64,000 bases of DNA from Candidatus Aminicenantes bacterium (GCA_963702005.1 OY969696.1:3072001-3136000); one strand, 5' to 3'. Positions 29,904 through 63,345 are shown, counted from the first letter of the stretch. The notes: generated by a model not told the origin, from the sequence alone. Translations and numbers: made by a program.

Positions 29904-29931
29904 AGAAACCTCGGATTTCTGAGAGGTTTCT
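29904..29931. promoter_or_regulatory. Inverted repeat in a divergent promoter region (putative operator)
   Basis: AGAAACCTC-N10-GAGGTTTCT. Confidence 0.5.
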
Positions 29932-29966
29932 GAAAAGGATTTAAAGACTACCGAGAAGTAATAATC

Positions 29967-30617
29967 ATGGCTTATATCGAAGCGAGGAAATACGGAATAA
30001 GCGGAGTCTTTATAGACGGATATATGCCTGTTTTTTCTGAACTAAGAAAGGTCGACTGGGACCGTGCGCTTGAACAGACGTTCTATAAATTTCCTTGGAG
30101 ACGTGACCAATTTAGCAAGATTAGAAAACACCTTGAACCAGGCTCAAGAGATTATGGTCCTTTTGTAAGGTCGGCAATATATGCAAAATTAATCGACAAT
30201 GTCAGGCTAGGCTTCTGTCAATATACAAGCAGGCCAAAATGGCCGTGCGATCACTGGTTCCATCCTTCCAAAGGACTAATGGGCATCAAATATTGTTTTT
30301 CTGCCAATTTGAACATGAATCCAGACGAGGTTGATGCTATATTCCATGCTGATGCGGAAACTGAAAGGGCGAAGGGAAAAGGAGAATATGCCTGCAATCT
30401 AATCGTAATCGACCGACGCCCCGACACTGGCTGTCGGGTTTTTAAGGAATGCAACTATCATTGGATGGAGTCTCTTAAGTTCGAGCCAAAAAGAAAAAAG
30501 GACCATTCCAACTTTAGAAATGTAAAAAAACTAGCTATGCAACTTCTAATTGAATCAATGATAATGATGGATAGCGAATATTTCGAAGATCATCGGTTAC
30601 GTGATTATTTCAGGTAA
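29967..30617 (+). CDS. Hypothetical protein
   Basis: 216-aa ORF. Confidence 0.65.
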   Translation: MAYIEARKYGISGVFIDGYMPVFSELRKVDWDRALEQTFYKFPWRRDQFSKIRKHLEPGSRDYGPFVRSAIYAKLIDNVRLGFCQYTSRPKWPCDHWFHPSKGLMGIKYCFSANLNMNPDEVDAIFHADAETERAKGKGEYACNLIVIDRRPDTGCRVFKECNYHWMESLKFEPKRKKDHSNFRNVKKLAMQLLIESMIMMDSEYFEDHRLRDYFR

Positions 30618-31511
30618 TTCTTCAATTAAACAATACTTCACATTATCGGGCAAAAATAATCTATATCCACTCCATCTTACAGTAACAATGAATTTTTTTA
30701 TTTCGGGACAGTGTTTAATAAGAGCAGACTTACATTGTTGGACATCATTGGTTCTCTCAAATTCCCATCTATTCCATTCCTCTAGATCCGTTTCCGCAGC
30801 ATTGTGCATAGCTTCGTATAATTTCCTATACGACACGTTATTCCCGATATTCTTTATTAGGCACGTCAAAAGTCTTCTTTCCTCAGGAAACATTTTTTGG
30901 GGAGTATTTCTCTTTATTAAATATTCACCATTCTTTTCATCCAGCCAGATAAATAACTTAGATTTGTCGATTTCTTTCTGCTCACTATATTGAATCTCTG
31001 TAAGTGGCTTGCCTTTTTTTTTATCATGAGAATACATCACATACTTTTTCTCTTCTTCCTCTTCAATAACAGGAAATCTTCCAATATTTTTCAAATCCTC
31101 TTTTATCATGGGGACAGCAAGCCTGATGGTCTTCAGAATCAGCCCTTCAGGCAAAGACTTTCCATACTTGGTAATTGTCTCTTCTATATCAGCATCCTGA
31201 ACTTGGCCCTTGAACTCCGCAAGCCTAAGCCACACCAATGATATCAAAGCGATAACTTTCGGCGTTTGAAGCCCCGCTACATCCGCTTCATCTAGGAACT
31301 GCAATTCTTTCGCAAGCTTCGCTTTATATTCTCGCGCTTCCAGCAGCTCTGCCGGGGATTCTCCCCTTTCCGAGATTTCCTTCTTAATTATTTGCCAGAT
31401 GCTACCGAATAGCTCTTTCTCTTCCGGAAGGCACTCCTCTACGACCTTCTTGCTGAGAGAATAAACAGCAGAATTACCTGAGTTCGAGGCGTTCATTTCA
31501 CAGGCTCTCAA
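30597..31511 (-). CDS. Protein with C-terminal OmpR/PhoB-type winged-helix domain
   Basis: ERRLLTCLIKNIGNNVSYRKLYEA...FIVTVRWSGYRL. Confidence 0.7.
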   Translation of the reverse strand: MRACEMNASNSGNSAVYSLSKKVVEECLPEEKELFGSIWQIIKKEISERGESPAELLEAREYKAKLAKELQFLDEADVAGLQTPKVIALISLVWLRLAEFKGQVQDADIEETITKYGKSLPEGLILKTIRLAVPMIKEDLKNIGRFPVIEEEEEKKYVMYSHDKKKGKPLTEIQYSEQKEIDKSKLFIWLDEKNGEYLIKRNTPQKMFPEERRLLTCLIKNIGNNVSYRKLYEAMHNAAETDLEEWNRWEFERTNDVQQCKSALIKHCPEIKKFIVTVRWSGYRLFLPDNVKYCLIEELPEIIT

Positions 31512-37193: not shown

Positions 37194-37817
37194 ATGGCAT
37201 CAAAAGAAGCGCTTCTATCTCGAAGCAGAGAGCCTCAGGTTAAGTATCTGGAAAAAGAAGAGGTCTACCGGCTATTCATGTCTATAACCGGAAAGAATTA
37301 TCGCGACAAGGCCATGTTCGATTTGATATACCGGCATGGACTGCGAAGAATTGAAGCAACCTGGCTTAGGAAAGACTGGGTACACAATGGCCGGATTTGG
37401 ATTCAGCGGGCAAAGAACGGCGTTTCTCAGGAGTACAATCTCCATCCTGCCTCGGAAAAATTGCTGGAATTGTATCTGGCGCAAAGAGGAGAAGACGGCA
37501 ATCCGTACCTCTTCGCTAGCCGGGAAAGCGGAAACGCCCGCCCGATTTCAAGCGGTCTGATTTATTACCTTTTCCAAATATACGCGGCCAGAGCGGGTAT
37601 CGCCCCCGAGAAGCGTTTCGTTCATATTCTTAGGCACTCCATTGCCGTCCATTTATTGAATGCAGGATGGGATCTATGCGACGTCCAGGACCAGCTCGGT
37701 CAAAAGGACATACGAAATACGGCAATCTACGGAAAGGTCTCGAATAAAAGACGAGACATGCAGTTTCAGAAACTGCTCAAATCAAACGAGATCGCCGACA
37801 CTCTGTCGGGGACTTGA
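37194..37817 (+). CDS. Short FimB/FimE-like tyrosine recombinase (catalytic domain only)
   Basis: HGLRRIE, RAKNG, HILRHS, LGQKDIRNTAIY. Confidence 0.88.
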   Translation: MASKEALLSRSREPQVKYLEKEEVYRLFMSITGKNYRDKAMFDLIYRHGLRRIEATWLRKDWVHNGRIWIQRAKNGVSQEYNLHPASEKLLELYLAQRGEDGNPYLFASRESGNARPISSGLIYYLFQIYAARAGIAPEKRFVHILRHSIAVHLLNAGWDLCDVQDQLGQKDIRNTAIYGKVSNKRRDMQFQKLLKSNEIADTLSGT

Positions 37818-39189: not shown

Positions 39190-39508
39190 TGGATAGAATC
39201 ATCGCTCACCTCAAGCTGACGTTCTTCGCCGAAAAACCTCCTCCGCCCCGGGTCGCTTATCAAGAAATTTGAGTGGCCACCGAAGCCGGCAGTGAATATT
39301 TTTCATGGTCCTCTCCTTGCCCAGCGGTGAGGTCCGGGTAATTTGCGGCACTTTATGCGCCTCGGATGGCTTTGCGGACATACCTCGTGCCCCCAAGCCG
39401 TTCTTGACATCCTTTTTTGTTATGATTTTTACTTGCTCACCATGGTTATATAAGAAAATGGGAGCGAAAATGCGCCCTCGGCCAGTGCCGCCGAAAACCA
39501 ATTTCTTA
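39190..39508 (+). mobile_element. Probable IS91-like remnant (transposase C-terminus and end)
   Basis: Reads DRIIAHLKLTFFAEKPPPPRVAYQE, resembling IS91-type C-termini (recalled, not searched). Confidence 0.4.
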
Positions 39509-41008
39509 TATTTTCAATCGTTCAAGGCGACGAGCTAGCAATTTAAGAGAAGGTTCCTTTATCTTAAGCGCTTCATTGATAGCCTTCTGACGTAAATTAT
39601 CTGCATTGGAACTATTAGCTAACAATTCCTCTCGAGCGAGGTAAATCATAGCACGAGCCTTTAGCCATGGCTGTGATTCTTTGTAGGCGATTTGTATAGC
39701 CTTATGATATAAATCTCTTCCTTCATTTGGCCTACCTGAACGATATTCTAACAACCCAGAAGTAGCCAAAGCGCAAATTTTAGTTGACAAGGGACAGCGG
39801 CTTAAATCAATTTTCGATAATGCTTTCTTAGCTTCCTCCAGTTTGCCTAGGTGGATAAGACTAAATGCAAGGTTATTTAATAAAGTCGGCTCCTTAGGAA
39901 TAATCCTCAGTGCGGATTCGATTATCTTAGTACCGGATATGTGGTCCTCAAATATTTCACTTGTTAAAAAAGACATATGAATATAAGGTCTTCTAGAAAA
40001 TGGTTCATCAGAAAGCCAAAATCGAGAATGTTCAAGAGATTTTTTCCATTTTCCTTCAAAGTAGGTCATTAAGGCTTTAGCTTCAAATGCACGAATTGGA
40101 TCAAATTTCTTTTCAAGCAGATCCTCAATCGTAACATACCTAGTTGCCCAAACAGCCTGAGCCAATGCATTATCGTTTGGTTTCTGCAATGAAAAAGCGA
40201 AGAGCTTTTTTGCCTTCTTGGAATTTCCTTTCCAGAGTTCCACACTTGCTAAAGCACTAGACAATTCACAAACTTGAAAGGGATCAAGCGATCTGCCATC
40301 AACAATTCTCATGCCAGGCTTTATAAGCTTTGAGCTCTTTTCAAGAATCGAACTAATAGCAATTTCTGTTGCCATGAGCCATGGATCATGCTTAGTTATC
40401 TCCGCGTTTCTTAAAAGATAGTGTGCCTTTTCAGGCTGGTTTAGATGAAGCTCAAGGCGAGCTGCACTTCTTAGAATGTAACGATTTAATGGAGCAAGAT
40501 AGTATGCAATTTGCATTGCTTTTTTGGCCTGCTCCTGTAAACCAAGTATTGTGTACAATCTTGCTAGATCTGCCCATACAAATGCATTGCGTGGTTGATC
40601 AATTCTTTTCTTTTTCATCCGCCTTATTGGCTCATATAAGTCACGTCTATCTGCGGAGATTGGAGCTTGCAAACTATCTTCTAAAGGCATAGGAATCCGC
40701 AGCACCTTGGCTGCAATCGACTTTGCTGCAGTGGAGGAGCCTGAATCTGGCTCTAAAACAAACTTTGCAGCGTCAATAGCCAACTCTGGATGCCCCATTA
40801 CATAAGCAACTCCGAGAAAATCAGTTGCGAACAACAACGTGCGATTGTTGGTCCACTCCTCCTTTTTTTTTAGTATAAATGAGTCTGGCGGCAATGCAGA
40901 AACTAATCGAGTCTCTGTGGGATCTAATTCTCCTGATTGAAGCGCTAGCTGAAATTCCCGCCAGCGAGGGACTATCCTGCGTCGAGTGTTTTCAATATTA
41001 ACTGCCAT
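39506..41008 (-). CDS. Tetratricopeptide-repeat protein
   Basis: 500 aa, helical; NAFVWADLARLYTILG, LLNNLAFSLIHLGKLEEA. Confidence 0.8.
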   Translation of the reverse strand: MAVNIENTRRRIVPRWREFQLALQSGELDPTETRLVSALPPDSFILKKKEEWTNNRTLLFATDFLGVAYVMGHPELAIDAAKFVLEPDSGSSTAAKSIAAKVLRIPMPLEDSLQAPISADRRDLYEPIRRMKKKRIDQPRNAFVWADLARLYTILGLQEQAKKAMQIAYYLAPLNRYILRSAARLELHLNQPEKAHYLLRNAEITKHDPWLMATEIAISSILEKSSKLIKPGMRIVDGRSLDPFQVCELSSALASVELWKGNSKKAKKLFAFSLQKPNDNALAQAVWATRYVTIEDLLEKKFDPIRAFEAKALMTYFEGKWKKSLEHSRFWLSDEPFSRRPYIHMSFLTSEIFEDHISGTKIIESALRIIPKEPTLLNNLAFSLIHLGKLEEAKKALSKIDLSRCPLSTKICALATSGLLEYRSGRPNEGRDLYHKAIQIAYKESQPWLKARAMIYLAREELLANSSNADNLRQKAINEALKIKEPSLKLLARRLERLKI

Positions 41009-50577: not shown

Positions 50578-50618
50578 AATGTCCCCTTTAAAAAAATGTG
50601 CTTACGAATTAAAAAGCT

Positions 50619-50846: not shown

Positions 50847-50857
50847 GCTTTACTCTC

Positions 50858-51307
50858 CTAATGCGGCATGTTCTTGGATACGAAGACCACGAGGAGAATC
50901 ACTCCAAGAATGAAAGCCGCTATCGAAGTTATGTTCAGGCCGAGCGTCCACTGGGCGGCTTTGTTTTTTTCGCTCTCTCTTTTCTTCCCGTCGAAAATCA
51001 CTTTCTCCAGGATTTCGATTTGCTTGCGACAGGCGCACTGACTGACCAGGAAAGAAATCAACGTGGAGAGCAGGCTTGTGCCGAAGCCCGCCCATGCGAC
51101 CAGCAGCCAGGCGAATGTACCCTGCCTAATGGCAGGGACGATTTCCTTGACAAAGGCGAGGGAAAAGCCGAATGCGCCCGCGGCGAGCGTCAGGATGGTC
51201 TTGTCGAACTTATGGGTTTCTTCGGCCTGTGATTGGATGAGCTTCGCCCGTTCATCGAGGTAGACCTTATATTCGTCTTCCCGGCTTCGGTTCTCTTCGC
51301 ACATCAC
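50858..51307 (-). CDS. Three-TM membrane protein
   Basis: FDKTILTLAAGAFGFSLAF and two further hydrophobic helices. Confidence 0.75.
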   Translation of the reverse strand: MMCEENRSREDEYKVYLDERAKLIQSQAEETHKFDKTILTLAAGAFGFSLAFVKEIVPAIRQGTFAWLLVAWAGFGTSLLSTLISFLVSQCACRKQIEILEKVIFDGKKRESEKNKAAQWTLGLNITSIAAFILGVILLVVFVSKNMPH

Positions 51308-51585
51308 CTAACCCGAAAATAACTATAAGCCGCCTCTTAGCCGATGTCAATTTTATTTAGAAATAAGCTACGCCTTCTTCCTCCCCGTTCCCTAATGGAA
51401 AGCAAGAATTTGTGCAAACGCAATACGATAGGCTTTTTCCAGCAGCTAATAAAATGAGCCGATCTTAAAACCTGTTTGGAGCCGAATTGTTTTCTCTTTA
51501 TGTTTAAACATTTATATAGTTTTTATCGGCATTTCTGGCATTCCGTATAAACAAGGCTTAAAACGCTTTCGGTCAACATATTTTC

Positions 51586-52646: not shown

Positions 52647-53375
52647 ATGCCCAAAAAGAATATACCTAATAAATTAATTATTTCATTTATTTTTTCTTAC
52701 TTTAAACTATTGGCAATGGCTTTTATCATCTATTTAGTATGTATTATTACTTTATCAACTATACTTGCGTATAAATATGAAGAATTTGTATTAAAAAAAG
52801 AATCACTCTTATCATTTTATTTTTTGATACCATTTAGTCTCGGAGTACTTATTGAACTTAATAATGAGAAATATAAAAAATCGATTTCATTAATTTACGG
52901 ATATTTATTGGGATTATTTGCTGGAATATCACTTGCAGCATCTATTCTTTATGGATTTATTTTTGGAATAATAATATTACTAATTTTTATTCTTGGGAAA
53001 CATATAGGTGGTTTTTGTCAGAGATATTTTTTTAAGCCGATACATACCTTTATTAAACCCTATATTTCATCAATATTGTTTAATTTAAAAATAATCATTG
53101 GGTATATTTTTCTTTGCACAATAATTTCCTTCTTATTTGCCTTAGTCTTTGCTCAATTGCAGCTTCATAATTCATGTAATTTTGGCTCCTTAGCTGGCCT
53201 TTTTTCTCATTTCATCAATTCATTTCTCAACATGATATCCTTTGGAAATATAGGAATTAAGGCAGATTGTGAAGTAATTAGTAAAATTCATCTTGTTCAA
53301 TATTTCATTTTTTCGCTAGTGACGATAATATTTGGAATTTTATTAATCAGGCCAAAATTAAAAACACAGAATTAA
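52647..53375 (+). CDS. Very AT-rich membrane protein, possibly ion-channel-like
   Basis: Multiple TM helices; SFLNMISFGNIGI resembles a degenerate pore loop. Confidence 0.65.
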   Translation: MPKKNIPNKLIISFIFSYFKLLAMAFIIYLVCIITLSTILAYKYEEFVLKKESLLSFYFLIPFSLGVLIELNNEKYKKSISLIYGYLLGLFAGISLAASILYGFIFGIIILLIFILGKHIGGFCQRYFFKPIHTFIKPYISSILFNLKIIIGYIFLCTIISFLFALVFAQLQLHNSCNFGSLAGLFSHFINSFLNMISFGNIGIKADCEVISKIHLVQYFIFSLVTIIFGILLIRPKLKTQN

Positions 53376-53462
53376 GCAATATTATCTACCTAGACTGCTT
53401 CAATTTCCTATAATGAATTCTTTTCTCAGAGGAAGGTTCATAATTTTATTGCCTTATCTAAT

Positions 53463-53525
53463 TTAGTCCGCTGGGACCGGGCGCTGGTCAGGGGGAAGGT
53501 GAGAGTGTTCAGGCCAACAGACTGA
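53463..53525 (+). repeat. Duplicated 3' end of cdc6
   Basis: Encodes LVRWDRALVRGKVRVFRPTD*, versus LVQWDRALVRGKVRVFKLS* at 52561-52620. Confidence 0.85.
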
Positions 53526-53598
53526 CCACTTAGCACTTTCTCGGTTCTTTTTAATATAATTAAAGACGGAAATAAATGAATCCGTCAAGGGGACATAA

Positions 53599-55794
53599 AT
53601 GAACAATCATTCAAAAGACGCAGATTATCTAGATAAGATAAGACAGGCTCATGATCACGCTCTTCAGGAAAAAGAAACGATAAAGAGAAAGATTGAAACC
53701 GCTATTTCCGATATAGATGTAATTGAATTACTAGCGCATATTGCATTTATCTCACAATACGTTCCCGAGAATGACCACACTATTAATCAGAGTATGCGGG
53801 AATACCCTTCTCTGCATTATTTAGCCGGGTTATCCTTGAAACAGCATCTCGTTAGCACAAGGCCTCCGGAAAATCGGGAGGTCGAAGCCATCTCAGAAGA
53901 CGTCAACCGATATTTCATTTCATATATGCAGGATATAACCCTACAAAGCTTTAAAAAAGAAAAGGCATCAGACGAGGACGGATTAATCCTTCAAGCTAGA
54001 ATCCAAAAAATGTTACGGCAGACAAGTGCGATGATGTATCCGTTCCAAGTAGAAACCCTAATTCATGGCTTATTCTCTCAATTTGATGAGTATTTCTTGA
54101 CAAAGGCTGGCTTCAGAGCGTCCACGGCCCTAGAATTCGGTACGAAAATAATCAAGCGGTATGAAAGGATGGCCAATAATAGATATGAAGAGGTGGGATC
54201 AGCAAGAAAGAGGGCCGCTGAAGAATTAAAAGATCCTGTCAAAGGGTCAGCTATCAGAGCGACTATGGCCGATTCTTTATCAGATGAAGACTTGCTAACT
54301 TCCTATACGGCCTTCTTATTGTTCACTAACATCAAAGAAATGTTTCTTTTCAATCCGGAATTGCTATGTAGGGAAGAAGGTATTTCGGATTCGTCAGAAT
54401 TCGCCAATTATGTGAATGCTCTAAGTTGCGAATTCGGTTCAAATCAAGATTTTAATGATCCGCTTGATAGCAACATCATATCCATCAAGCCATTCATTAA
54501 GGTAAATGGCGACGCCTTTTTTGTTCCAATATTTCAGGACTTGATCCATAATCTTCCGCTTATTCTGGAATCCCTCCTTGAACAAGATAAGTTAGCACAA
54601 TCAGGGATCTGGCAGAGATACCAATCTAGCCGAGCTAACTTTATCGAGGGCCGAATTTGCGATTTTCTTTCCAGGTTGTTTCCCAATGCAAACATATTTA
54701 GGAATGTAAAATATGTTTATCAGGGGAACGAATGCGAAGCGGATATTATCGTCCTTTATGACAACAAAATATTTTTAGTTGAAGCAAAAGCGGGCTCTTT
54801 TAGAGAACAGGCGCAACGTGGAGGAATCGAAAGCCTAAAGAAGGACCTAAAGAAACTGATCGAGGAGGCATATCAGCAAGGGAGGAGGACAGCCGCTTAT
54901 CTAAAATCAAATGAAATCTCGACTTTTTCGTATTCCCAAGGCAATAAGATTTTGGAGATTAAACAAAACAATCAGACCACATTCATCATAGGGGTTACTC
55001 TAGAGCCCCTCATGAGCCTCGCTATCGGCTTGAAGAATCTTAGGTCGTTGGGGCTTTTCATTGAAAATGAGTATCCGTGGTCAGTTCAAATCAATGAACT
55101 GGATTTAGTTACGCGCCATCTTCCTTCTCCGACTATTTTTATTCACTACTTAGAAAGCCGTCTTCGGGCCATAGACGAAAATGTTTTTCATGCCTACGAC
55201 GAACTTTCGTTTCTTGCCTGGTATCTCAGAAAAGGGAACTTTTTAGTTCCATATGACAAGGACGACAAACAGCCAAATCTTTTGGAGATCGGGTCCGATT
55301 GGACAACGCCCTTCGATGAGCATTATCTCTTTGGTAAGGAAAAGCCGGAACTAGACATCGAAGATGATTTGCTAAAAATCATACGCATCTTAGAATATCT
55401 AAATCCGATTGGCTACTCGGACATCGCAAGCGCGCTCTTAGATTTCGACCATGAAGCAAGAAGACTAATCATCGCGAAGATTAACGACTTAATATCGTTA
55501 TCGAAAAGCGACCGGGAACCTCATGATTTTTCCGTAATCTATAAGGAAGATTTGGATACCGGCCTTAGCTTCATGACACTTGTAGGGAGAGACGGATTAA
55601 AAGAGCGTCTGGGCTCCTACTGTGCCTTGAAAAAATACCAAACTAAAACAAAAAGATGGCTCGGATTAGGACGAGATGTTCAGGATGACAGATGGTTTGT
55701 AAATGATTTCGCTTATTTCAATTTTCCTTGGGAACTCAATTCAAAAATGGACGAATTGCTCCGCGCTTTTCCCATGAGGGATAAAAGCACATAA
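53599..55794 (+). CDS. Large protein with NERD/PD-(D/E)XK nuclease-like domain
   Basis: FRNVKY...CEADIIVLYDNKIFLVEAKAG...AYQQG. Confidence 0.78.
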   Translation: MNNHSKDADYLDKIRQAHDHALQEKETIKRKIETAISDIDVIELLAHIAFISQYVPENDHTINQSMREYPSLHYLAGLSLKQHLVSTRPPENREVEAISEDVNRYFISYMQDITLQSFKKEKASDEDGLILQARIQKMLRQTSAMMYPFQVETLIHGLFSQFDEYFLTKAGFRASTALEFGTKIIKRYERMANNRYEEVGSARKRAAEELKDPVKGSAIRATMADSLSDEDLLTSYTAFLLFTNIKEMFLFNPELLCREEGISDSSEFANYVNALSCEFGSNQDFNDPLDSNIISIKPFIKVNGDAFFVPIFQDLIHNLPLILESLLEQDKLAQSGIWQRYQSSRANFIEGRICDFLSRLFPNANIFRNVKYVYQGNECEADIIVLYDNKIFLVEAKAGSFREQAQRGGIESLKKDLKKLIEEAYQQGRRTAAYLKSNEISTFSYSQGNKILEIKQNNQTTFIIGVTLEPLMSLAIGLKNLRSLGLFIENEYPWSVQINELDLVTRHLPSPTIFIHYLESRLRAIDENVFHAYDELSFLAWYLRKGNFLVPYDKDDKQPNLLEIGSDWTTPFDEHYLFGKEKPELDIEDDLLKIIRILEYLNPIGYSDIASALLDFDHEARRLIIAKINDLISLSKSDREPHDFSVIYKEDLDTGLSFMTLVGRDGLKERLGSYCALKKYQTKTKRWLGLGRDVQDDRWFVNDFAYFNFPWELNSKMDELLRAFPMRDKST

Positions 55795-55972
55795 TTCTTT
55801 ATTCGCACAAACCGCATCCTCCCTCCTCAATCCTTTTCTTCCCCCCTGCCTTCCTACTTCCCATGGATTACAGAAAACTTGACGAGCTCCCCGCCTGGGT
55901 CAAGCTCGTGAACAGGCTTCTTCATGGCCAGGAGACTCTTGAAGACGTCAGGCCATACAGGGAGGCGAAGGG

Positions 55973-56194
55973 ATGAACGAGATCCACATTCTGGATATAA
56001 GGATTATTGGAGCTGGAATAGTTTTCATAGCCTTTGCGCTGATCGTGGTTGCTGGATTCGCGCTCGGCCCTTATCTTGAGGTGGTTTCTCCTTACGATGG
56101 AAAGCTTTTGATAATTGCATCTTCGATTTCTCTTGGGGTCATGATTGCCACTGCCTGTTTCATAATCTACTCTATGTTCAAACGCAAAGAATGA
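55973..56194 (+). CDS. Small two-TM protein
   Basis: 73 aa, hydrophobic; GGAGG upstream. Confidence 0.6.
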   Translation: MNEIHILDIRIIGAGIVFIAFALIVVAGFALGPYLEVVSPYDGKLLIIASSISLGVMIATACFIIYSMFKRKE

Positions 56195-56337: not shown

Positions 56338-57522
56338 ATGATGCGCCTCGATGCACATAAGTACAAAGAAAGAATTGAGCGGTTTTTTGAGAAGCTTGAA
56401 GACAGTCCGATGAATGAAGAAGACAAGAAAATCCTCGATAAATATAGAGATTACCTCGTTTCTGAGGGGATAACCTTAGGCAGGGTGGCCAAATACCTCC
56501 ACGACTTAAACAAAGCTTCAGGACTCTTGGGCAAAAAGTTCGGAGAAGCGGATGAGGGGGATATCAGGACGATCGTAACCATTTTCGACAAAAATGAGAA
56601 ATACTCTCCCTGGACAAAGCGCGATTTCAAAATAGCCCTTCGTAAATTCTACACCTGGCTGCGCGGGACGAAGACATATCCTCCTGAAGTGGCTTGGCTG
56701 CGGGTCCATGTAAAGATCAGGAACACCAAGACGGCAGAAAACATGCTCACAGAGGAGGAGGTAAAAAAGCTTATTGATCATGCGCCTGGCGCTCAGGAAA
56801 AGGCATTCATTGCGACGCTTTACGAAAGCGGCTGCAGGATAGGAGAACTGATTTACCTGAAAACAAACCAGGTCAAATTCGACGACTTCGGAGCTCAACT
56901 ATTCGTGACGGGCAAGACGGGCTTCAGAAGGGTGAGAGTGATCGCGTGCGTCCCCTATCTCATCGAATGGACAAACAAACATCCGTTGAAGCACGATTCA
57001 GAAGCGTACCTCTGGATAAATAGAAAGCTTGAACCTTTCGATTACAACGGGATAGCTCAGACGCTTTACCGCATCGCAAAAAAGGCGGGCATCAAAAAGA
57101 ACGTAAATCCCCATAACTTCAGGCATTCGCGGGCGACCTATCTGGCGAATTTTCTGACCGAAGCCCAGATGAAAGAGCATTTTGGATGGACGCAGGACTC
57201 GAAAATGGCGGCAGTCTATGTCCATTTGTCCGGTCGAGACGTGGACAAGGCTCTTCTGAAGGTCTATGGAATCGAAAGCGCTGAACAGAAGAAAGAAAGC
57301 ATTTTCAAACCGAAAGAGTGCGCCCGCTGCCGCCTCTCTAATCAGGCAACCAACCGCTTCTGCTCCCGCTGCGGCCTCCCCCTGGACGAAGAAGCCAAGG
57401 CCGAGGTCATGAGGAAGGACATGGAGCGGGAAAAGGCGGACCAGGTGCTGGACAAACTTATCGAGGACCGGGAGTTCAGGGAGATGTTTGTACAAAAACT
57501 ACAGAATTTTAAGCGGCTCTAG
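56338..57522 (+). CDS. Tyrosine integrase with C-terminal zinc ribbon (archaeal-type architecture)
   Basis: SGCRIGE, GKTG, NPHNFRHSRAT, FGW, VYVHLS; CARC...FCSRCG. Confidence 0.93.
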   Translation: MMRLDAHKYKERIERFFEKLEDSPMNEEDKKILDKYRDYLVSEGITLGRVAKYLHDLNKASGLLGKKFGEADEGDIRTIVTIFDKNEKYSPWTKRDFKIALRKFYTWLRGTKTYPPEVAWLRVHVKIRNTKTAENMLTEEEVKKLIDHAPGAQEKAFIATLYESGCRIGELIYLKTNQVKFDDFGAQLFVTGKTGFRRVRVIACVPYLIEWTNKHPLKHDSEAYLWINRKLEPFDYNGIAQTLYRIAKKAGIKKNVNPHNFRHSRATYLANFLTEAQMKEHFGWTQDSKMAAVYVHLSGRDVDKALLKVYGIESAEQKKESIFKPKECARCRLSNQATNRFCSRCGLPLDEEAKAEVMRKDMEREKADQVLDKLIEDREFREMFVQKLQNFKRL

Positions 57523-58083
57523 TTAATCTACCTTCTTTTTTCCCAAATAAGGAAACCCGCAAAAAAAACAACGGACTTTTTCTGTCCAATCTTCGCGTAT
57601 TTTAATCTTCCGCTTGCAACAGGGCAATTCAACTATTTCCATATCATTTGTTTCGGGAGAGATCCAAGGCTCCTCCATTTTCATTTCTTGCGCATCAATT
57701 TTTATTGAAAATAATCCAGACGAAGACCCGCCGAAATTTCTCTTCAACGGCCTGATAAGTTCTTCGTTGATTATTCTATTCGCTAGGTTTTTCGCAAAGA
57801 CGCCGATATAAGCCATTTGTTCATCGGTCCACCAATTACTGGCCGCGGACACTTGCCCGCAATAAGGGCAGAAGAATTCTGGCTCGGGCTTTCCACCCTC
57901 TTCTTGTTTAACTTCATCAGCTTTATTATCGAGCATAAAGTTCTCGACTCCCTTTTTAGCCAGGTTTTCGAGTTCTTTCTCATCAAGCAATACTTTGAAC
58001 TCCCTCCGGCATAAAGGACACAGCCTGCGGAAAAATCTTTCATCGTCCGTAGGAAGAGGAACACTCATTTCAATGTGGCTCAT
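57523..58083 (-). CDS. Zinc-ribbon protein
   Basis: CPLC, CPYCG, PCC, CFFCG. Confidence 0.75.
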   Translation of the reverse strand: MSHIEMSVPLPTDDERFFRRLCPLCRREFKVLLDEKELENLAKKGVENFMLDNKADEVKQEEGGKPEPEFFCPYCGQVSAASNWWTDEQMAYIGVFAKNLANRIINEELIRPLKRNFGGSSSGLFSIKIDAQEMKMEEPWISPETNDMEIVELPCCKRKIKIREDWTEKVRCFFCGFPYLGKKKVD

Positions 58084-58864
58084 TTCCCGCTCCTTTTATT
58101 TGTACAAATCGCCTTATTATTGCGGTTGCCAGGCTTGAAGATATGTTAATGGCCAACTCCGCTATATATGCCGATGTCTGGGGCGGGAATTTCCCTTTTC
58201 CATGTGCGTCTCCAAGAACGTTTCGCAGACCCCCGAGATTGGTGATTAATCCCGTCAATGCATTTAGAACACGGGTCAGCTCTTCGCTTGCATCTATCTT
58301 ATCAAAATCAAGAAGTGCGCGAGTGGACTTCCATAAATCAGATAATTGTTTCTTCTCAGGCAAAGGCCTCTTGCATTCGTCATGACAAATTCGCATCGTA
58401 CTTTCGAGACAGCTTATGCTCCGAGTTACCGCATTTTCGAAATTTCCGTCCCTTATGGCCGTTCTTGCTTTCTCAATGTCCTGGAATGCGGCGAAAAATC
58501 CATGTTTTTCGAAGAGTCCTCTCGCTGTCGTCACGATTTGTCGAGTTGTTTCGGCGGTCGGCAATTCGCATTTTTTACAATAATCTAGATTCGTGTCTCT
58601 ACGCCGTATTTTGCAGAATAGGTTGTGAATGTGATACGCGTTATGCCTCCAGATTTGAATACTGGGAGTGATCGCGTCACAACCAACTTCTCTATATACC
58701 TTGCCTACGGGACATTCAAGGCAAATCTCCGCTGATACTTCGTTCGTATTGTGCTCCCCGCCGGTCTGTTTGGCCGCTCTACAAATCAGCGTCCCCATTC
58801 CGATTTCTTGAAGATGGCAACTTATGTCGTCTTGCTCGGAAGGTCCCTTTTTCTCATCAGTCAT
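58070..58864 (-). CDS. Abortive-infection C-terminal (Abi_C/HEPN-like) protein with Cys-rich N-terminus
   Basis: AVTRSISCLESTM; LRNVLGDAHGKG (R-x-H); AELAIN. Confidence 0.78.
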   Translation of the reverse strand: MTDEKKGPSEQDDISCHLQEIGMGTLICRAAKQTGGEHNTNEVSAEICLECPVGKVYREVGCDAITPSIQIWRHNAYHIHNLFCKIRRRDTNLDYCKKCELPTAETTRQIVTTARGLFEKHGFFAAFQDIEKARTAIRDGNFENAVTRSISCLESTMRICHDECKRPLPEKKQLSDLWKSTRALLDFDKIDASEELTRVLNALTGLITNLGGLRNVLGDAHGKGKFPPQTSAYIAELAINISSSLATAIIRRFVQIKGAGNEPH

Positions 58865-58994
58865 TAAAAGCCCCTTTAATTGTTAATTCATACGGAATTA
58901 TATTCGTTTTCTCCCGTTTATTAAAGCCTCTTTAAAAGCATAATCCGCATTGCTTCTCGGCCAGACTTTAAAAGAGGTCTGTCAATCGGCATAC

Positions 58995-59144
58995 ATGAAT
59001 TCGGCGAATCCCCGGAAGACGGTCGCTTTCGCCTGTCCAGGCTGCCTGACGACATTCCATCTTTATATCTGGGAAATCGAGGAAGGCGCTCCGAAATGTA
59101 ACTACTGCATGATCCCCCTTGAGAGGGTGAAGAATCGGAGGTGA
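58995..59144 (+). CDS. Small zinc-ribbon protein
   Basis: CPGC...CNYC. Confidence 0.5.
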   Translation: MNSANPRKTVAFACPGCLTTFHLYIWEIEEGAPKCNYCMIPLERVKNRR

Positions 59145-59147: not shown

Positions 59148-59612
59148 ATGAATCTCAACGAAATGAGTCATGAGAGGCAGGTGGGCTATCTGCGGTCGGT
59201 TTTGAGGTCGGGGAAAGGCACTCTGACGGGCTTTATGGCGCTGTTCGCGTTCCGCCATCATCTCGCATCGAAGCATTCGCCCGACTTCTCGCAGAGCCCG
59301 GTGCTGCGCTGGTATCTGGGCCAGCTCGCGAAGGAATACATCAAGCGCTACTACGCTGAAGCGAAGAGCACGCTGGAGAACTTCGCCGAGATCGGCCTGC
59401 TCGAAGCGAAGGGCGACGCCGAAGAGGTCCAGAGGGAATTCCGGCTGAACGAAGCTTTCTTGCCTGCCCTTCAGGAAGTGCTCGAAGAGATCTTCGGCAA
59501 CGAAACCGTCGCAGACGCAGTCGCCAGGGCCAAATACTACAGGGACCCTGCCTCGGCAAAGGAAAGGCCGCATGCTCGGAAGGATTTCAAGAATGCAGAG
59601 GTGGGAAAATGA
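59148..59612 (+). CDS. Hypothetical protein, wHTH-like
   Basis: GGAGGTG RBS; TLENFAEIGLLE. Confidence 0.65.
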   Translation: MNLNEMSHERQVGYLRSVLRSGKGTLTGFMALFAFRHHLASKHSPDFSQSPVLRWYLGQLAKEYIKRYYAEAKSTLENFAEIGLLEAKGDAEEVQREFRLNEAFLPALQEVLEEIFGNETVADAVARAKYYRDPASAKERPHARKDFKNAEVGK

Positions 59613-60052
59613 AGGGCGAGATCGAGAAAATCTGGAAGAATGCGACAGCCGATGGTAGAAAATACAACGTCTTGCAGATAGGCGGCGTGCGCTATTCGCT
59701 TTGGGAAGGCGACTACCTGGACAAGCTGAGCGAAGGCCAGACGCTCGAATTCGACTTCCGCGAGAGCGGCGACTTCAGGAACATCAGCAAAATCTACGAC
59801 CCGGCGGGGGCCAAGAAACCGAGCGAGAACGACGCCCTGCCGCCGGAGCCTCCAGCAAACGACAATCAACAGGGCCAGAAGGCGCGCCAAATCGTGAGGA
59901 TGAGCAGCCTGCGTTCGGCCAGCCAGATCCTGAACGGGTCGAGAATCCCTGCCGGCGAGCGCGCCGAGAAGACGATAGAAATCGCGAAGAAGTTCGAGAA
60001 GTACATCGGCGACGAGGGCTTGGCGGACCTCGAAGATGAAAACAAGCCATAG
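59609..60052 (+). CDS. OB-fold-like protein (possible ssDNA binder)
   Basis: Beta-rich N-terminus GEIEKIW...YNVLQI...YSLW...FRNISKI; acidic tail. Confidence 0.55.
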   Translation: MKGEIEKIWKNATADGRKYNVLQIGGVRYSLWEGDYLDKLSEGQTLEFDFRESGDFRNISKIYDPAGAKKPSENDALPPEPPANDNQQGQKARQIVRMSSLRSASQILNGSRIPAGERAEKTIEIAKKFEKYIGDEGLADLEDENKP

Positions 60053-60350
60053 GCTTTCGGAATTCGTGAAGTCCCTCGGACGATATGGACGGCCTGAGCC
60101 AGGCGAAGAGCTCTTGACCGAATATGGAAAGGCAAGGGTTTTGCGCGTCGTTCCCTATGAGGAAGTCGTCGAAGAGATGAGGAGAGACCTCGTCGCTAGC
60201 AAGGAAATCGAGCGCTTCGATTTGCGCGCCGAGCATTTCCTCGGAAAGAAGGACAAGTATTTCGAGGCCGAGCTTGCATATCCCGACGGCGAAGTCGAAC
60301 GAATCGACTGGAGCGAATACCTCGCCATGAAAAACAAAGGAAAAGGGTGA
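60036..60350 (+). CDS. Hypothetical protein
   Basis: 104 aa; overlapping operon gene. Confidence 0.65.
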   Translation: MKTSHRLSEFVKSLGRYGRPEPGEELLTEYGKARVLRVVPYEEVVEEMRRDLVASKEIERFDLRAEHFLGKKDKYFEAELAYPDGEVERIDWSEYLAMKNKGKG

Positions 60351-60381
60351 TTTTACGGTCGCACACGAAAAAATCAGGTTA

Positions 60382-60630
60382 GGTGATCAGGAGTTCGCGG
60401 TCAGAACGAAGAAGGTTTATCAAAGAGACCTTACCTCAGACTGTTGGTCCGTCCAGGTTTGGGGCCTCCCCTACTGCTCGGGCTTCGGGAACCCTGAGGC
60501 GATGTGCGAGTTCCTGGCGACCGAGGAATGCGGAGGATACGGCGTCAGACGGAAGATCCTCAGGGGCAAATACCCCCTCCACGGCCTTCCTGACGCATCT
60601 TCGGGGGCCGGACCGTAGGGTGTGGGGAGT
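60382..60630 (+). ncRNA. Candidate structured non-coding RNA or ssDNA element
   Basis: Multiple stems with G-U pairs, CUUCGG motifs and possible pseudoknots (see findings). Confidence 0.5.
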
Positions 60631-60636
60631 AGAACC

Positions 60637-60879
60637 ATGAAAAAGGCCCGCATTTTCGTCCTGGTGAAGAATTTCGGGGGCGTCAACCACGACGCCGAGC
60701 TTTACTCCAGCCTCGCGGAGGCCAAGCGCGGCTTCGCCGAGTATACGGGCTTCGGCTATTCCAGAGAATATTGCGATCCCTGCTCTCCCAAGTACTCGGA
60801 AAAATTCAGCGAGACGAAGCTTTTCGAGCTCGATATGCCGGATTTCCTCAGGCCAAGGCGGACAAAGCAAAAAGGGTGA
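60637..60879 (+). CDS. Hypothetical protein
   Basis: GGGGAG RBS; 80 aa. Confidence 0.6.
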   Translation: MKKARIFVLVKNFGGVNHDAELYSSLAEAKRGFAEYTGFGYSREYCDPCSPKYSEKFSETKLFELDMPDFLRPRRTKQKG

Positions 60880-61400
60880 CTTATCTGGAAGGCGAGTATG
60901 AGAACGGCGGCATAAAGTCGATAAGGCAGAGGAGGCAGCGCAAGGACTCGTATTTCGACGGCTACGAATATCGCGGATACAAGGTCAAGACTAAGCTGGC
61001 CATCGAAGGACGCAGGGAATACAAGCCGCTGAAGCTTTCGAACTCTTCAGACGTTTTCGGCGCTTTCAGGAAGCTTCACGAGGCGGACAAGGAGAAGTTC
61101 TATTCCGTTCTCCTCGACACCAAGAACAAGGTCATAGGGGTTGACATGGTGAGCCAGGGCTCGCTGGAATCAGCTCCGGTCGCTCCCCGAGAAGTTTACA
61201 AGGCCGCACTTCTCGCATCCGCCGCTTCGGTCATATTCATTCATTCCCATCCTTCGGGCGAACCCGAGCCTTCCTCCGCCGACATAGAGCTCACCCGCCA
61301 GCTCAAGCAGGTCGGCCAGCTTATGGGCATCCAGGTGCTCGACCACGTGATCATCGGGCGCGGCAAGTTCTACAGCTTTGCGGACAAGGGGGAATTATGA
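60876..61400 (+). CDS. radC: RadC-family JAB-domain protein
   Basis: EKFYSVLLDTKN, PREVYK.AL, HSHPSGEPEPSSAD, LDHVIIG. Confidence 0.93.
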   Translation: MTYLEGEYENGGIKSIRQRRQRKDSYFDGYEYRGYKVKTKLAIEGRREYKPLKLSNSSDVFGAFRKLHEADKEKFYSVLLDTKNKVIGVDMVSQGSLESAPVAPREVYKAALLASAASVIFIHSHPSGEPEPSSADIELTRQLKQVGQLMGIQVLDHVIIGRGKFYSFADKGEL

Positions 61401-61621
61401 CCGGCGGCCTGCACGAAGTCCGGGTTCGCTTGCCCGGATTTAGGAGATACAAAGGATATTCCGACCTGATTGATACTTACTGCTGCTCGGCTACGTCATG
61501 CTACTATGTCGAGTTTCCCGCGCTCGGATACGAAGGCTACTTCCAGAAGTCGGACGTTGAAGTCAAAGAGGTGAGAATATCGAGTTCAGAAAAAAAGAAT
61601 TGTCGGTTGAAGAAACGATGA
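61397..61621 (+). CDS. Hypothetical protein
   Basis: ATGA overlaps at both ends. Confidence 0.55.
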   Translation: MTGGLHEVRVRLPGFRRYKGYSDLIDTYCCSATSCYYVEFPALGYEGYFQKSDVEVKEVRISSSEKKNCRLKKR

Positions 61622-61902
61622 AGCGCTATCCCAGGCTGACGGCGCATGTCATAGCCGAGTCGCTCGGCTACGCCACTCCATCGTGCGCTGCACGCATTCT
61701 GAAAGACGCGAGGGAGAGGAAGGAGAACTACTGCGAGTGGATCGACGCCTGCTACGGCGGCGACCCGCTTCCTGCGGTAAAGAACGCGATAAGGAACAGG
61801 CACACGCACAGCGGTTTCATGGCCGAATACAAGCTCGCGCTGGCGCTCGTGCGGAAGGCGCTCGAAACAAGCGACGAGCCGGTCTTTGCGAGCTGGTTTT
61901 AA
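61618..61902 (+). CDS. Hypothetical protein
   Basis: ATGA overlap; 94 aa. Confidence 0.6.
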   Translation: MKRYPRLTAHVIAESLGYATPSCAARILKDARERKENYCEWIDACYGGDPLPAVKNAIRNRHTHSGFMAEYKLALALVRKALETSDEPVFASWF

Positions 61903-62078
61903 TGAAGAGAATCAATCTGACTTTCGACGATATCGAACCTCTAGAACGAGCATTAAACAAATACGCTTCCATGGGAAGCGGCCTAGTCTTTTACAAGGGC
62001 GAAGGCTGGGACTGGAGGATGGCCAGGTATGCCCTGGAGGACTTGAAGGCGCGCAGGGATGGAGAAAAGGGACGCTGA
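61902..62078 (+). CDS. Hypothetical protein
   Basis: TAATG overlap; 58 aa. Confidence 0.5.
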   Translation: MKRINLTFDDIEPLERALNKYASMGSGLVFYKGEGWDWRMARYALEDLKARRDGEKGR

Positions 62079-62124
62079 AATTCCCTTCATGGCGAGCCGG
62101 TTTTATAGCGAAAGAGGTGGGAAA

Positions 62125-62415
62125 GTGACAAAATTCGATACGGATGGGAAGCATTTATATATCGACGGCAAGAAGGTCCTGCGCGGCTGGGAGTCGTTCT
62201 CTGGCTGGTACTGGTTCGCTACTGAAAAAGCGAACGAGCAGATGAGCGACCTGGGCGACGGCAAGCCGGTCAAGGACACGATTTATTTCGGCCTGGTCCA
62301 GGGTCTTGAGGAGGAATGGGGCTACTTCTCCCAGGCGGAAATCGAGAGCCTCAGGCCGAAGACGTGGGAAATCCCGAAGAAGAATTTGCCTTATTCGGGA
62401 AGACGTAGCAATTAA
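62125..62415 (+). CDS. DUF2958-like protein
   Basis: GWESFSGWYWFATE...YFGLVQG.EEEWGYFS. Confidence 0.7.
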   Translation: MTKFDTDGKHLYIDGKKVLRGWESFSGWYWFATEKANEQMSDLGDGKPVKDTIYFGLVQGLEEEWGYFSQAEIESLRPKTWEIPKKNLPYSGRRSN

Positions 62416-62499
62416 TGGTTTTGTTCATCTTTTTATGTCCATGTTGAAAACATATCGATTATAAAGTATAAGTTTTACTAGAATATCGGAGGTAGGGTT

Positions 62500-63345
62500 A
62501 TGCCAGATAAAACGAGCCTGAAATTAGATAATCCTGATATTGGGAGGATCCCAGTTGGCAAGATTTCTTTTGAAAAATGGAATGTGAGAACTCTCGACAG
62601 AAATAAAGGTGTAGGGGAACTCGCAGAGAGCATTCTAAAATATGGGCTCCTGCAGCCTATAGTAGTGATTGAAGAAAAAGCCGGGTTCGAGTTAATTATT
62701 GGCCAGCGCAGGCTTCTTGCTTTTAAAGAACTAATCAAACAAGGCCACAGCCAATTTAAAGATATTCCGGCAATAATACTTCACAAAAAAGCAGACGAAG
62801 AAGATCTAAAAATTCTATCCCTATCCGAGAACATCCATAGAGTCGAACTAAATAGAGCGGATATTGTAGAGGTTGTTAGCTTCTTATACAAGAAATACAA
62901 CAAATCAGCAAAAAAGGTATCGCGGCTTCTCGGCAAGAGTGTATCCTACATTTATGAACACCTTAAAATCCAGGATGCACCCACAGAAATCAAGCAAATG
63001 CTGGCATCTAGAGAATTGAGAAAAGAAGACGTCAAAAGACTAATGGAGGTTGCCGCTGACGATAAGAATAAAATGCTCGAATTAGCGAAAGAAATGAAAA
63101 GCCTTACTGCTCCCGAGAAGACAAGGCTTGTTGAAATAGGGAAGAAGAAACCGCAAATTAAGTCGAAAGACCTTATCGAGGAAGTAAGAAAACCGAGAAT
63201 CGAAGAAAAGGTTATTGTCCCCTTGACTCCCGAGCTGCTTTCAGCACTTGATAATGCAGTGAAGGCAATCGGTTTAAGCAGAGAGGAAATCGCCAGAAAA
63301 GCACTAGAGGACTGGCTTGATAATAAAGGATATCTCAAAGGGTAA
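62500..63345 (+). CDS. ParB/Spo0J-family protein with C-terminal RHH-like tail
   Basis: LAESI..YGLLQPIVV, IIGQRR, ENIHR.EL, HTH. Confidence 0.9.
   Translation: MPDKTSLKLDNPDIGRIPVGKISFEKWNVRTLDRNKGVGELAESILKYGLLQPIVVIEEKAGFELIIGQRRLLAFKELIKQGHSQFKDIPAIILHKKADEEDLKILSLSENIHRVELNRADIVEVVSFLYKKYNKSAKKVSRLLGKSVSYIYEHLKIQDAPTEIKQMLASRELRKEDVKRLMEVAADDKNKMLELAKEMKSLTAPEKTRLVEIGKKKPQIKSKDLIEEVRKPRIEEKVIVPLTPELLSALDNAVKAIGLSREEIARKALEDWLDNKGYLKG

Follow-up and report, generated by a model that had tools for sequence, protein, structure and literature searches.

An archaeal-type Orc1/Cdc6 gene within a probable integrative element of a Candidatus Aminicenantes chromosome

We analysed a stretch of 64,000 nucleotides (nt) from a Candidatus Aminicenantes bacterium, corresponding to positions 3072001-3136000 of a single closed contig of 4,309,361 bases (C1). 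This whole stretch is called the window, and positions are counted from its first letter. The region from ~37,100 to at least 62,400, which contains a gene for an Orc1/Cdc6 protein, is low-GC, foreign DNA and probably a mobile element integrated in the chromosome of a bacterium, which also has a diverged second copy of it. We favour, with moderate confidence, the reading that this integrative element uses Orc1/Cdc6 as its origin-binding and/or switch protein. The foreignness of the region, its gene content, synteny, phylogeny and motif conservation are all seen directly in the comparisons described below.

Two copies of a low-GC element in a bacterial chromosome

The genome of the host, 94% complete, is bacterial. 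It contains a bacterial 16S-tRNA-tRNA-23S operon (RF00177, 1579.9 bits, the best match of its clan), a DnaA gene and 25 matches to sigma-70 region 2. Searches for TBP and for TFIIB/TFB, each positive only in the four archaeal control genomes, gave no match in this genome, and none of the 33 open reading frames (ORFs) of positions 29,967-63,998 matched TBP, TFIIB or an RNA polymerase subunit in a Pfam scan. A preliminary description of this DNA had called the surroundings bacterial-looking; the RemA gene that it mentioned is located at 20422-20637 on the minus strand, outside the low-GC element. The GC content of the genome is 60.4% and that of the island ~40-51%; a low-GC mosaic (37-55%) extends from ~2,000 to 82,000, past the end of the window, with a sharp drop at ~30,000. 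An Rfam scan of the window returned tRNA only.

The second copy of the element (copy 2) is located at C1:129,277 to ~166,541 and is collinear with positions 37,194 to ~62,400 of the window at 65-80% nucleotide identity, with its integrase inverted. The homology between the copies begins at ~37,105 and ends at ~62,400, beyond which short islands and a shared repeat of 130 nt are found; the element probably continues to ~71,000. The repeat lies at ~70857-70996 (L086 6857-6996) and at C1:188416, 166402, 1559481, 4103799 and 948874, six genome copies in all. It is preceded by an extended -10 motif (TGnTAyAAT), shows 86% identity when the two element copies are compared at their right ends, has a plus-strand fold z of -1.9 and matches no Rfam family. 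The sharp fall in GC content near 30,000 might also be taken as the sign of archaeal or other foreign DNA wrongly joined into a bacterial contig. Such an assembly artefact is extremely improbable, because a single closed contig of 4.31 Mb contains both of the collinear, diverged copies at a distance of 3 Mb from each other; in addition, bacterial-style Shine-Dalgarno (SD) sequences and TATAAT boxes occur inside the island, and the same core is found in long bacteria-labelled contigs of the family, including one of 300 kb from Pirellulales and one of 73 kb from Phycisphaerae.

The conserved genes of the element are the following (aa, amino acids):

37194..37817, plus strand: short tyrosine recombinase (207 aa), catalytic domain only, the leftmost gene common to copy 2 (Pfam Phage_integrase, E 1.9e-25)
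42333..42992, plus strand: 219-aa core protein with a disordered N-terminal half and a long helical hairpin (copy 2 alignment, AlphaFold2 model)
42976..45021, plus strand: HerA/FtsK-type ATPase, 681 aa, fused to a MarR-like winged helix and an intact PD-(D/E)XK nuclease (Pfam DUF87, alignment, model)
51586..52620, plus strand: Orc1/Cdc6 AAA+ protein, 344 aa, with lid and winged helix (TIGR02928, Pfam, structure alignment, tree)
56338..57522, plus strand: tyrosine integrase with a C-terminal four-cysteine zinc ribbon (Pfam Phage_integrase, E 1.6e-20)
58941..59144, plus strand: two-box site and 49-aa zinc-ribbon gene (ATG 58995), conserved in copy 2 (copy 2 comparison)
59148..62415, plus strand: right core block common to copy 2, with a 154-aa protein, a 147-aa protein with phage-like look-alikes, small ORFs and a RadC-like JAB protein

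The Orc1/Cdc6 of the window is complete, with Walker motifs, lid and winged helix. It scores 182.2 bits against TIGR02928, barely over the cut-off of 181.3, and 50.8 bits against Pfam Cdc6_lid (cut-off 27). Its residues 25-337 align with residues 23-357 of the solved archaeal Cdc6/ORC1 chain 2v1u_A (E 2.5e-28), and this alignment spans Walker A (GRPGTGKT), Walker B (VLDEVD), the lid and the winged helix. The gene assignment of the preliminary description is therefore confirmed.

A protein search yielded 327 homologues of this Cdc6, most of them ~345 aa long. When a single genome of each species was scanned, 98 Cdc6 loci were confirmed, the best 80 of which were analysed. The closest loci (38-54% identity) bear the labels Eubacteriales, Armatimonadota, Phycisphaerae, Pirellulales, Ignavibacteria, Zixibacteria, Dehalococcoidales, Paceibacterota and entries labelled simply 'bacterium', together with one Aenigmatarchaeota label (L011) and one 'archaeon' (L018, 38%); the remaining loci (~30% identity) are mostly Orc1 of DPANN archaea. 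No Cdc6 was found in 80 relatives, two from the same genus and 78 from the same order.

The phylogeny of Cdc6 comprises 78 rows, obtained by a quick IQ-TREE search and rooted at the midpoint, so that the root is not inferred. It omits four of the 80 loci (L017, L020, L073 and L085), whose ORF was cut or shorter than 250 aa, and samples only sequences having two peptide patterns in common with the query. The window and copy 2 fall into a clade of 14 rows (Shimodaira-Hasegawa-like approximate likelihood ratio test, SH-aLRT, 98) with 11 bacteria-labelled loci and L011, and hence 11 of its 12 labelled loci are bacterial; near-identical proteins from Ignavibacteria and Zixibacteria are found within it. 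This clade lies inside a group of 19 rows (SH-aLRT 99) with the Orc1 of two Aenigmatarchaeota, a Nanohaloarchaeon, Halorussus and an archaeon in which the neighbouring gene is one of diphthamide synthesis. The other 59 rows are DPANN Orc1 and one Sulfurovum-labelled sequence. The tree supports the descent of the element's Orc1/Cdc6 from archaeal initiators.

The Aenigmatarchaeota label of L011 is untrustworthy either way, since no gene diagnostic of an archaeon or a bacterium is present in 59.7 of its 75.8 kb. This part contains HerA, an integrase of the family and a Cas4-like nuclease, along with AIPR/Z1 and further genes of defence type. On the same contig (G081:C4; L011, L101, L102) the backbone genes are spread over ~45 kb in a circular permutation of the usual order (integrase, small protein, Cas4-like nuclease ... 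HerA ... Cdc6), and a 697-aa M48-like protein resembles the product of 31498-33543 in the window.

The integrase exceeds the cut-off of Pfam Phage_integrase (74 versus 27.1 bits). Its best NCBIfam match is recomb_XerA_Arch, at 110 bits below the cut-off of 220, and by this score it is not a XerA equivalog. Its zinc-ribbon tail, already recognised in the preliminary description, is a CxxC-x10/11-CxxC motif. The fetched loci contain 10 relatives of full length, including one from Micrarchaeota, and all 10 have kept the motif. Two Micrarchaeota loci encode integrases that are 42-43% identical and carry the same zinc ribbon, and the archaeal marker genes NMD3, DUF2070 and DUF63 stand on one of these two loci. 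Archaeal ancestry, one of the two possibilities that had been suggested for the element, is thus supported for parts of it, namely Cdc6 by its tree and the integrase by its Micrarchaeota relatives; working archaeal promoters are not supported (see below). The shorter recombinase at the left end is 72% identical in amino acid sequence to the product of C1:129277-129849.

Alignment with copy 2 places the true start of the hairpin gene at ATG 42333, not 42180. None of the 83 homologues of its product has a function name, and 2 of the 83 have a precomputed Pfam entry (PF26406). The AlphaFold2 model contains two helices (residues 88-145 and 153-210), with a predicted local distance difference test above 90 over residues ~100-200. 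The possibility that this protein is a nuclease partner of HerA was rejected, because the model, which was not fold-searched, is a helical hairpin without a nuclease fold. In the C-terminal 265 residues of HerA, E155, H156, D187, E200, E202 and K205 are invariant in nine of nine sequences. The model of this part consists of a MarR-like winged helix followed by an alpha/beta domain, which match MarR regulators and the nucleases of restriction endonuclease (REase) fold 1xmx, 1y88 and 2vld at weak Foldseek E values of ~1e-4; the names attached to the REase-fold matches are VC1899, AF1548, NucS and Bax1.

According to tblastn and neighbour clustering, the hairpin protein, HerA, Cdc6, the integrase and the 147-aa protein, sometimes doubled, recur in relatives as the backbone of the family, with a Cas4-like PD-(D/E)XK nuclease added in five loci. 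About 10 loci with bacterial labels, from other phyla than the host, have the same core. Within the fetched flanks, the integrase is present in 11 of the 14 loci of the element Cdc6 clade and HerA in 8 of the 14. The order of the backbone is hairpin, HerA-winged helix-nuclease, Orc1/Cdc6, XerA-like zinc-ribbon integrase, small zinc-ribbon protein and small phage-like proteins. This synteny across phyla, the existence of copy 2 and a cargo that varies from locus to locus are together characteristic of a mobile element that integrates and carries its cargo in hotspots.

A/T boxes and conserved sites of the core operons

The preliminary description had interpreted a series of A/T-rich boxes upstream of start codons as archaeal promoters, composed of a B recognition element (BRE) and a TATA box, with leaderless transcripts. 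All the sequences that it quoted are found where it placed them: TTTAAA 27 nt 5' of ATG 29967, TTTTATAAAA before ATG 48036 (minus strand), CTTAAAA 28-29 nt 5' of ATG 51586 (Cdc6), TTTAAAAA 28 nt 5' of ATG 56338 (integrase) and TTTAAAAG 28 nt 5' of ATG 58995 (49-aa gene). Likewise, GAAAGCTTT(T)AWA is found at 37107-37118 (minus strand) and 56204-56215 (plus strand); this 12-mer occurs four times in the 4.3-Mb genome, twice in the window and not at all in copy 2. The GAAAGCTTTWWA boxes are thus rare but absent from copy 2, and hence no function was assigned to them.

The enrichment of such boxes over background is marginal. Taking as a strict box TTTAAA, TTTATA, TTATAA, TTAAAA or TATAAA, and the first ATG of each ORF, 5 of the 34 genes in 29930-62500 have a box with its 5' edge at -30 to -24, exactly the five already named (edges at -28 to -25). 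In the other 7-nt windows between -100 and -6 the mean is 1.66 genes, and 4 of 88 such windows reach five. A rotation test of the upstream regions gives P = 0.02, a post hoc and marginal value in an island whose low GC content favours such words. Among 3,269 host ORFs of at least 250 aa outside both islands, the boxes amount to ~1% per 5-nt bin, with no sharp peak. The related statement that most of these genes have no clear SD is correct for the five named genes and fails for the region, in which strong SD 5-mers at -18 to -5 precede 11 of 33 genes, as compared to 4 of 33 in a control window. Moreover, TATAAT at -33 to -44 together with a GGAGG- or AAGGGG-type SD is found at several genes, e.g., those at 53599, 58864 (minus strand) and 37194. 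With SDs and TATAAT in many neighbouring genes, the locus as a whole is not archaeal-looking in its expression signals. As to the individual boxes, the genes at 29967 and 48036 lie outside the backbone, and the box of the integrase is not conserved: copy 2 has GAGGAGG in its place, and five relatives have an inverted repeat. In L007 (~10330-10397), L008, L009, L010 and L014, a conserved segment of ~60 nt, absent from the window, directly precedes the integrase start; it contains the nested inverted repeats GGGCAT..ATGCCC and CCCACG..CGTGGG and may serve as operator, attenuator or recombination site.

The conserved sites, besides that of the 49-aa gene listed above, are:

51523..51585, plus strand: conserved upstream region of Cdc6, with TTATCGGCAT, TGGCAT, TATAAA, TTAAAA and no SD
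42260..42332, plus strand: two-box promoter-like site of the hairpin-HerA operon, with TTATCCGCAT, 15 nt, TTTAAT and a 42-nt leader

Upstream of Cdc6, a TTATC[CG]GCA-type box is present at -58 to -69 in 11 of the 13 alignable family loci, followed about one helical turn later by a second sGCA and, 14-19 nt further on, by the A/T box. The latter is found in its strict form at -35 to -25 in 8 of the 13 loci and as a looser hexamer at -36 to -22 in 12 of the 13; an SD is lacking in 12 of the 13, the other (L007) having GGAGGA. This layout of CCGC-core boxes, an A/T box near -28 and no SD parallels that of the archaeal relatives. Among 62 archaeal Orc1 loci, the edge of a strict box is at -30 to -26 in 20 and at -35 to -31 in 7 (27 of 62; three of the 62 starts are not at a start codon), and in Micrarchaeota TTCCGCGGAA repeats stand directly 5' of the A/T box. 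Judged by these alignments, the Cdc6 box is real, old, common to archaeal Orc1 genes and the only one of the named boxes backed by conservation, and the gene appears to have retained much of its archaeal upstream layout. An inverted, 87%-complementary copy of the upstream-box sequence lies 187 nt away (51313-51327 versus 51515-51529), an arrangement that resembles paired origin-recognition boxes (ORBs).

The same composition is found at two further core operons. The site of the 49-aa gene consists of TAATCCGCAT, 16 nt, TTTAAAA, 20 nt and the ATG, and its counterpart in copy 2 of AATCCGCAA, 17 nt, CTAAAAT and 21 nt to the ATG. Together with the hairpin-HerA site, three core operons, Cdc6 included, have a TCCGCA-type box 15-17 nt 5' of an A/T box (TTTAAT/TTTAAA/TAAAAT). 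The composite TC[CG]GCA-N14-18-TWWAAW matches 10 times in 261 kb on both strands, as compared to 2.84 +/- 1.65 in block shuffles (maximum 8 in 100), and three of its four matches in the window precede the three core operons; the pattern had been derived from the same sequences in which it was then counted. A fixed gap of 15-17 nt between two boxes is what a bacterial sigma factor would recognise, promoters of the sigma-70 type having a spacing of 16-18 nt and a TATAAT-like downstream box; in archaea, the BRE abuts the TATA box. Two other interpretations of these motifs were discarded. TTATCCGCA is one base off the DnaA-box consensus TTATCCACA, but position 7 is G in every family member, and the spacing of TGGCA-N-GCA does not fit the -24/-12 consensus of sigma-54.

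If the boxes were nevertheless working archaeal BRE/TATA promoters giving leaderless mRNAs, the element would live in, or shuttle through, archaea. The -28 to -25 edges of the five boxes, the occurrence of the strict box in both archaeal relatives and element loci, the Aenigmatarchaeota bin of L011 and the Micrarchaeota relatives of the integrase speak for it, as does a purine-rich CGAAA/GGAAA run directly 5' of the A/T box in L009, L011 and L014, presumably similar to a BRE. On the other hand, neither the host nor the 33 ORFs has a TBP/TFB match, the distance from box to ATG at Cdc6 spreads from -22 to -36 across the family, the integrase box is unconserved, the region-wide enrichment is marginal, and L011, mostly mobile and defence DNA, has no domain-diagnostic gene in the part read, the other 11 labelled loci of the clade being bacterial. 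Furthermore, the same box type lies 42 nt 5' of the hairpin-HerA start, so that this mRNA is not leaderless. We therefore regard this explanation as very improbable and see no support for working archaeal promoters as a property of the locus, given the missing TBP/TFB, the -35/-10-type spacing, the 42-nt leader and the GGAGG SDs and TATAAT boxes nearby. Judged from their arrangement, the A/T boxes of the core resemble half of a bacterial-style promoter with two boxes more than they do a working archaeal promoter. Since the host has no TBP/TFB match, the most economical assumption would be that the A/T box serves bacterial RNA polymerase as its -10 element.

Possible roles of the backbone and its cargo

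According to the reading that we favour, the integrase would insert and excise the element, and the winged helix of Orc1/Cdc6 would bind the conserved TTATCCGCA-type boxes 5' of its own gene and of two other core operons. The box-bound Cdc6 would be the origin-binding and/or transcriptional switch protein of the element. A sigma-factor RNA polymerase would read the A/T box as -10, paired with the TCCGCA 15-17 nt upstream, and produce short, SD-less leaders; TCCGCA itself may be a weak -35, the site of an element-encoded DNA-binding protein, or both. We infer the binding of the boxes by Cdc6, the transcription starts and the replication or excision of the element from sequence comparison. The binding is predicted because of the position of the boxes, the ORB-like repeats of the archaeal relatives and the precedent of the archaeal virus SNJ2, whose Orc1/Cdc6 homologue is reported to trigger integrase expression (PMC10123103).

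Several observations weigh against this reading. As for the MCM helicase, the usual client of Orc1, no clear copy was found in host or element by a Pfam search that is unspecific, being positive in all 14 control genomes; the host gave only weak partial matches, like all 10 bacterial controls. No direct repeat of at least 13 nt convincingly joins the left and right flanks of either copy as attachment (att) sites, which bears on the ends and mobility of the element. As regards an empty site, the same-genus and same-order genomes have only short repeats in common with the flanks and are too diverged. A pattern search of IMG/VR for an episomal or viral form gave 28 matches, none of them a Cdc6 relative. 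As to the promoters, TCCGCA agrees with the textbook -35 sequence TTGACA at three of six positions, a generic sigma-70 scan found 18 sites versus 22.1 in shuffles and hence no enrichment, and the composite pattern was counted where it had been found. (A generic terminator scan was likewise not above shuffles.) Finally, the set of domains HerA, Orc/CDC6, REase and winged helix-turn-helix (wHTH) is also that of published putative defence modules (PMC10853773).

Indeed, the hairpin, HerA(winged helix-nuclease) and Cdc6 could form an anti-invader 'HerA/FtsK capture' defence module instead of maintenance machinery, the integrase merely belonging to the carrier island. Cdc6 would localise on DNA, HerA would reel in foreign DNA and the fused nuclease would cut it. 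The authors of PMC10853773 argue for a defence role of mobile neighbourhoods with Orc/CDC6, HerA/FtsK, active and inactive REase and wHTH, and the HerA described here bears both a wHTH and an intact REase-fold nuclease. Its best PADLOC matches are defence-system HerA, mad8 and DndH models (E 1e-10 to 1e-12), and its surroundings are packed with defence candidates. However, the 344-aa Cdc6 is collinear with a 387-aa archaeal ORC1, which leaves no room for the 'invariably' inserted inactive REase. In the compact loci L008, L009 and L012, Cdc6 stands directly 5' of the integrase and no HerA is found within 7 kb; Cdc6 is more tightly paired with the integrase than with HerA. In addition, defence cargo sits between HerA and Cdc6, which is unusual for parts of one operon, and the predicted shared promoter boxes also serve the operon downstream of the integrase. 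We consider the defence module the main alternative, possible but less likely than the reading that we favour; element maintenance and defence are not exclusive and can both hold.

A broader scenario would have one family of integrative elements circulating among DPANN archaea and at least eight bacterial phyla, with an MCM-free Orc1/Cdc6 initiator in bacteria, A/T boxes readable both as TATA box and as -10, and TTATCCGCA boxes acting as ORB-like Orc1 sites. This is a speculative extension, which we judge improbable.

The defence candidates of the surroundings, and the right end of the window, are listed here:

39506..42065, minus strand: Ser/Thr kinase and TPR protein, a candidate defence pair PDC-M71A/B (PADLOC, E 3.5e-121 and E 4.4e-138)
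45013..51232: cargo hotspot 1, with a 558-aa protein of no assigned role, a phosphoribosyltransferase (PRTase)-like protein, PDC-S54, an NYN nuclease and small ORFs
52647..56194, plus strand: cargo hotspot 2, with a 242-aa protein, also of no assigned role, a 731-aa NERD-domain protein and a 73-aa protein
57523..58864, minus strand: PDC-M14A-like and AbiJ/Abi_C-like pair (Pfam, PADLOC)
62500..64000, plus strand: ParB-like genes; low-GC DNA continues to a tRNA-Leu at ~71,121-71,209

Two gaps of the backbone hold exchangeable cargo, mostly of defence type, which differs locus by locus. At the position of hotspot 1, relatives have AbiEi/AbiEii or GmrSD; at that of hotspot 2, an OLD-family ATPase, DUF4238 or IS66. 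The 731-aa NERD protein and the 73-aa protein of the window are common to copy 2. PRTase-CE and type I restriction-modification genes are also found as cargo elsewhere in the family. The PDC-M71A/B pair is absent from copy 2. Upstream of the pair at 57523..58864 there is a sigma-70-like site (TTAATA-16-TATAAT), and an SD precedes each ATG. After the RadC block (window 62500-64000, L086 40-4691) follow two ParB-like genes, DUF6602, a gene resembling 3'-phosphoadenosine-5'-phosphosulfate (PAPS) reductase and a 987-aa methylase-nuclease of the MmeI/Eco57I type (type IIG).

The element is surrounded by other unusual DNA. The segment 29967-37042 is low in GC yet not common to copy 2; it encodes a BlaR/M48-like 681-aa protein, a Trans_reg_C protein, DUF3800, a cysteine synthase and a SufS-like desulfurase, and may be separate cargo or another island. 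A second, unrelated type of element, whose proteins are 30-38% identical from copy to copy, also occurs twice in the genome, at 19053-25654 of the window and at C1:89647-94986; it encodes a phage-type integrase (352 aa) and RemA as well as a HerA of its own, distinct from that described above (675 aa). Just beyond the end of the window, at 71121-71209 (L086 7121-7209), there is a tRNA-Leu(taa) that is odd and 89 nt long; the genome has another one, of normal type, at C1:1659135. A 16-nt exact copy of the anticodon stem-loop of the odd tRNA is found at 19001-19016, beside the 3' end of the phage-type integrase (19053-20111). By this identity, 19001-19016 and the odd tRNA are candidate att sites of a 52-kb composite island enclosing the Cdc6 element. 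Finally, at 9884-12654 (minus strand), in a 39%-GC patch near a tRNA-Arg (7782-7855), a protein with an AEP (archaeo-eukaryotic primase)-like primase domain adjoins a patatin plus inactive-HKD protein, the two probably forming another small island or a defence pair.

Relation to known elements

That archaea carry integrated elements with Orc1/Cdc6 is well established, and neighbourhoods of Orc/CDC6 and HerA are on record in prokaryotes. As in archaeal plasmids, proviruses and cryptic integrated elements with Orc1/Cdc6 and a tyrosine integrase, e.g., those of a Thaumarchaeota survey (PMC6563490) and the SNJ2-type pleolipoviruses (PMC10123103), a complete, integrated Orc1/Cdc6 gene stands next to a tyrosine integrase. 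Also as in these, repeated boxes and, near -28, an A/T box stand 5' of the gene, and its clade lies among archaeal Orc1. Unlike the archaeal elements, the present one resides in a bacterial chromosome, as do all but one of the 12 labelled loci of its family by their labels; it shows no MCM, capsid or conjugation genes, has a HerA-winged helix-nuclease fusion with a helical-hairpin partner, and pairs its A/T boxes with a box at bacterial -35 spacing. The SNJ2 switch is reported to be a module of three genes, a wHTH repressor, its antagonist and an Orc1/Cdc6 controlling int (PMC10123103); of this, the adjacency of Cdc6 and integrase is seen here.

The element resembles the capture neighbourhoods of Krishnan, Burroughs, Iyer and Aravind (NAR 2024, PMC10853773) in its Orc/CDC6, HerA/FtsK, active REase and wHTH, and in being mobile and sporadic; the HerA/FtsK, active-REase and wHTH components are all present within the single 681-aa protein. 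That paper places an inactive REase 'invariably' between the AAA+ core and the wHTH of Orc/CDC6, and the Cdc6 of the element differs in having no such insert. Again unlike those systems, the conserved integrase, the shared promoter box and the cargo hotspots point to the backbone of an element and not to a stand-alone defence operon.

In bacteria, the defence genes of P4-like satellites, of phage-inducible chromosomal islands and of the hotspots of integrative and conjugative elements vary, but occupy fixed positions of a backbone that is conserved. The layout of the cargo is similar here; the backbone genes are different and partly archaeal-type. Full-text searches of the literature gave no description of this backbone in bacteria, although the supplements of PMC10853773 and bioRxiv preprints could list it. 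Apparently new, therefore, is the combination of an insert-free Orc1/Cdc6, a zinc-ribbon XerA-like integrase, HerA-winged helix-nuclease and the hairpin protein as a cargo-carrying bacterial element found over many phyla with a shared promoter box.

Orc1/Cdc6 is regarded as a hallmark of archaeal and eukaryotic replication, and one preprint (10.64898/2026.05.20.726742) relies on TIGR02928 to recognise archaeal chromosomes in a screen of assemblies. In the present case a closed bacterial chromosome encodes, twice, a protein that passes this model, and the same backbone is present in many bacterial phyla. A/T boxes near -27 in low-GC islands should not be taken for archaeal promoters. The element offers a tractable case for studying how the expression of a gene survives its transfer between domains, how an element backbone not described so far spreads defence genes, and what an archaeal-type initiator does in a cell apparently without MCM, be it replication, an excision switch or defence.

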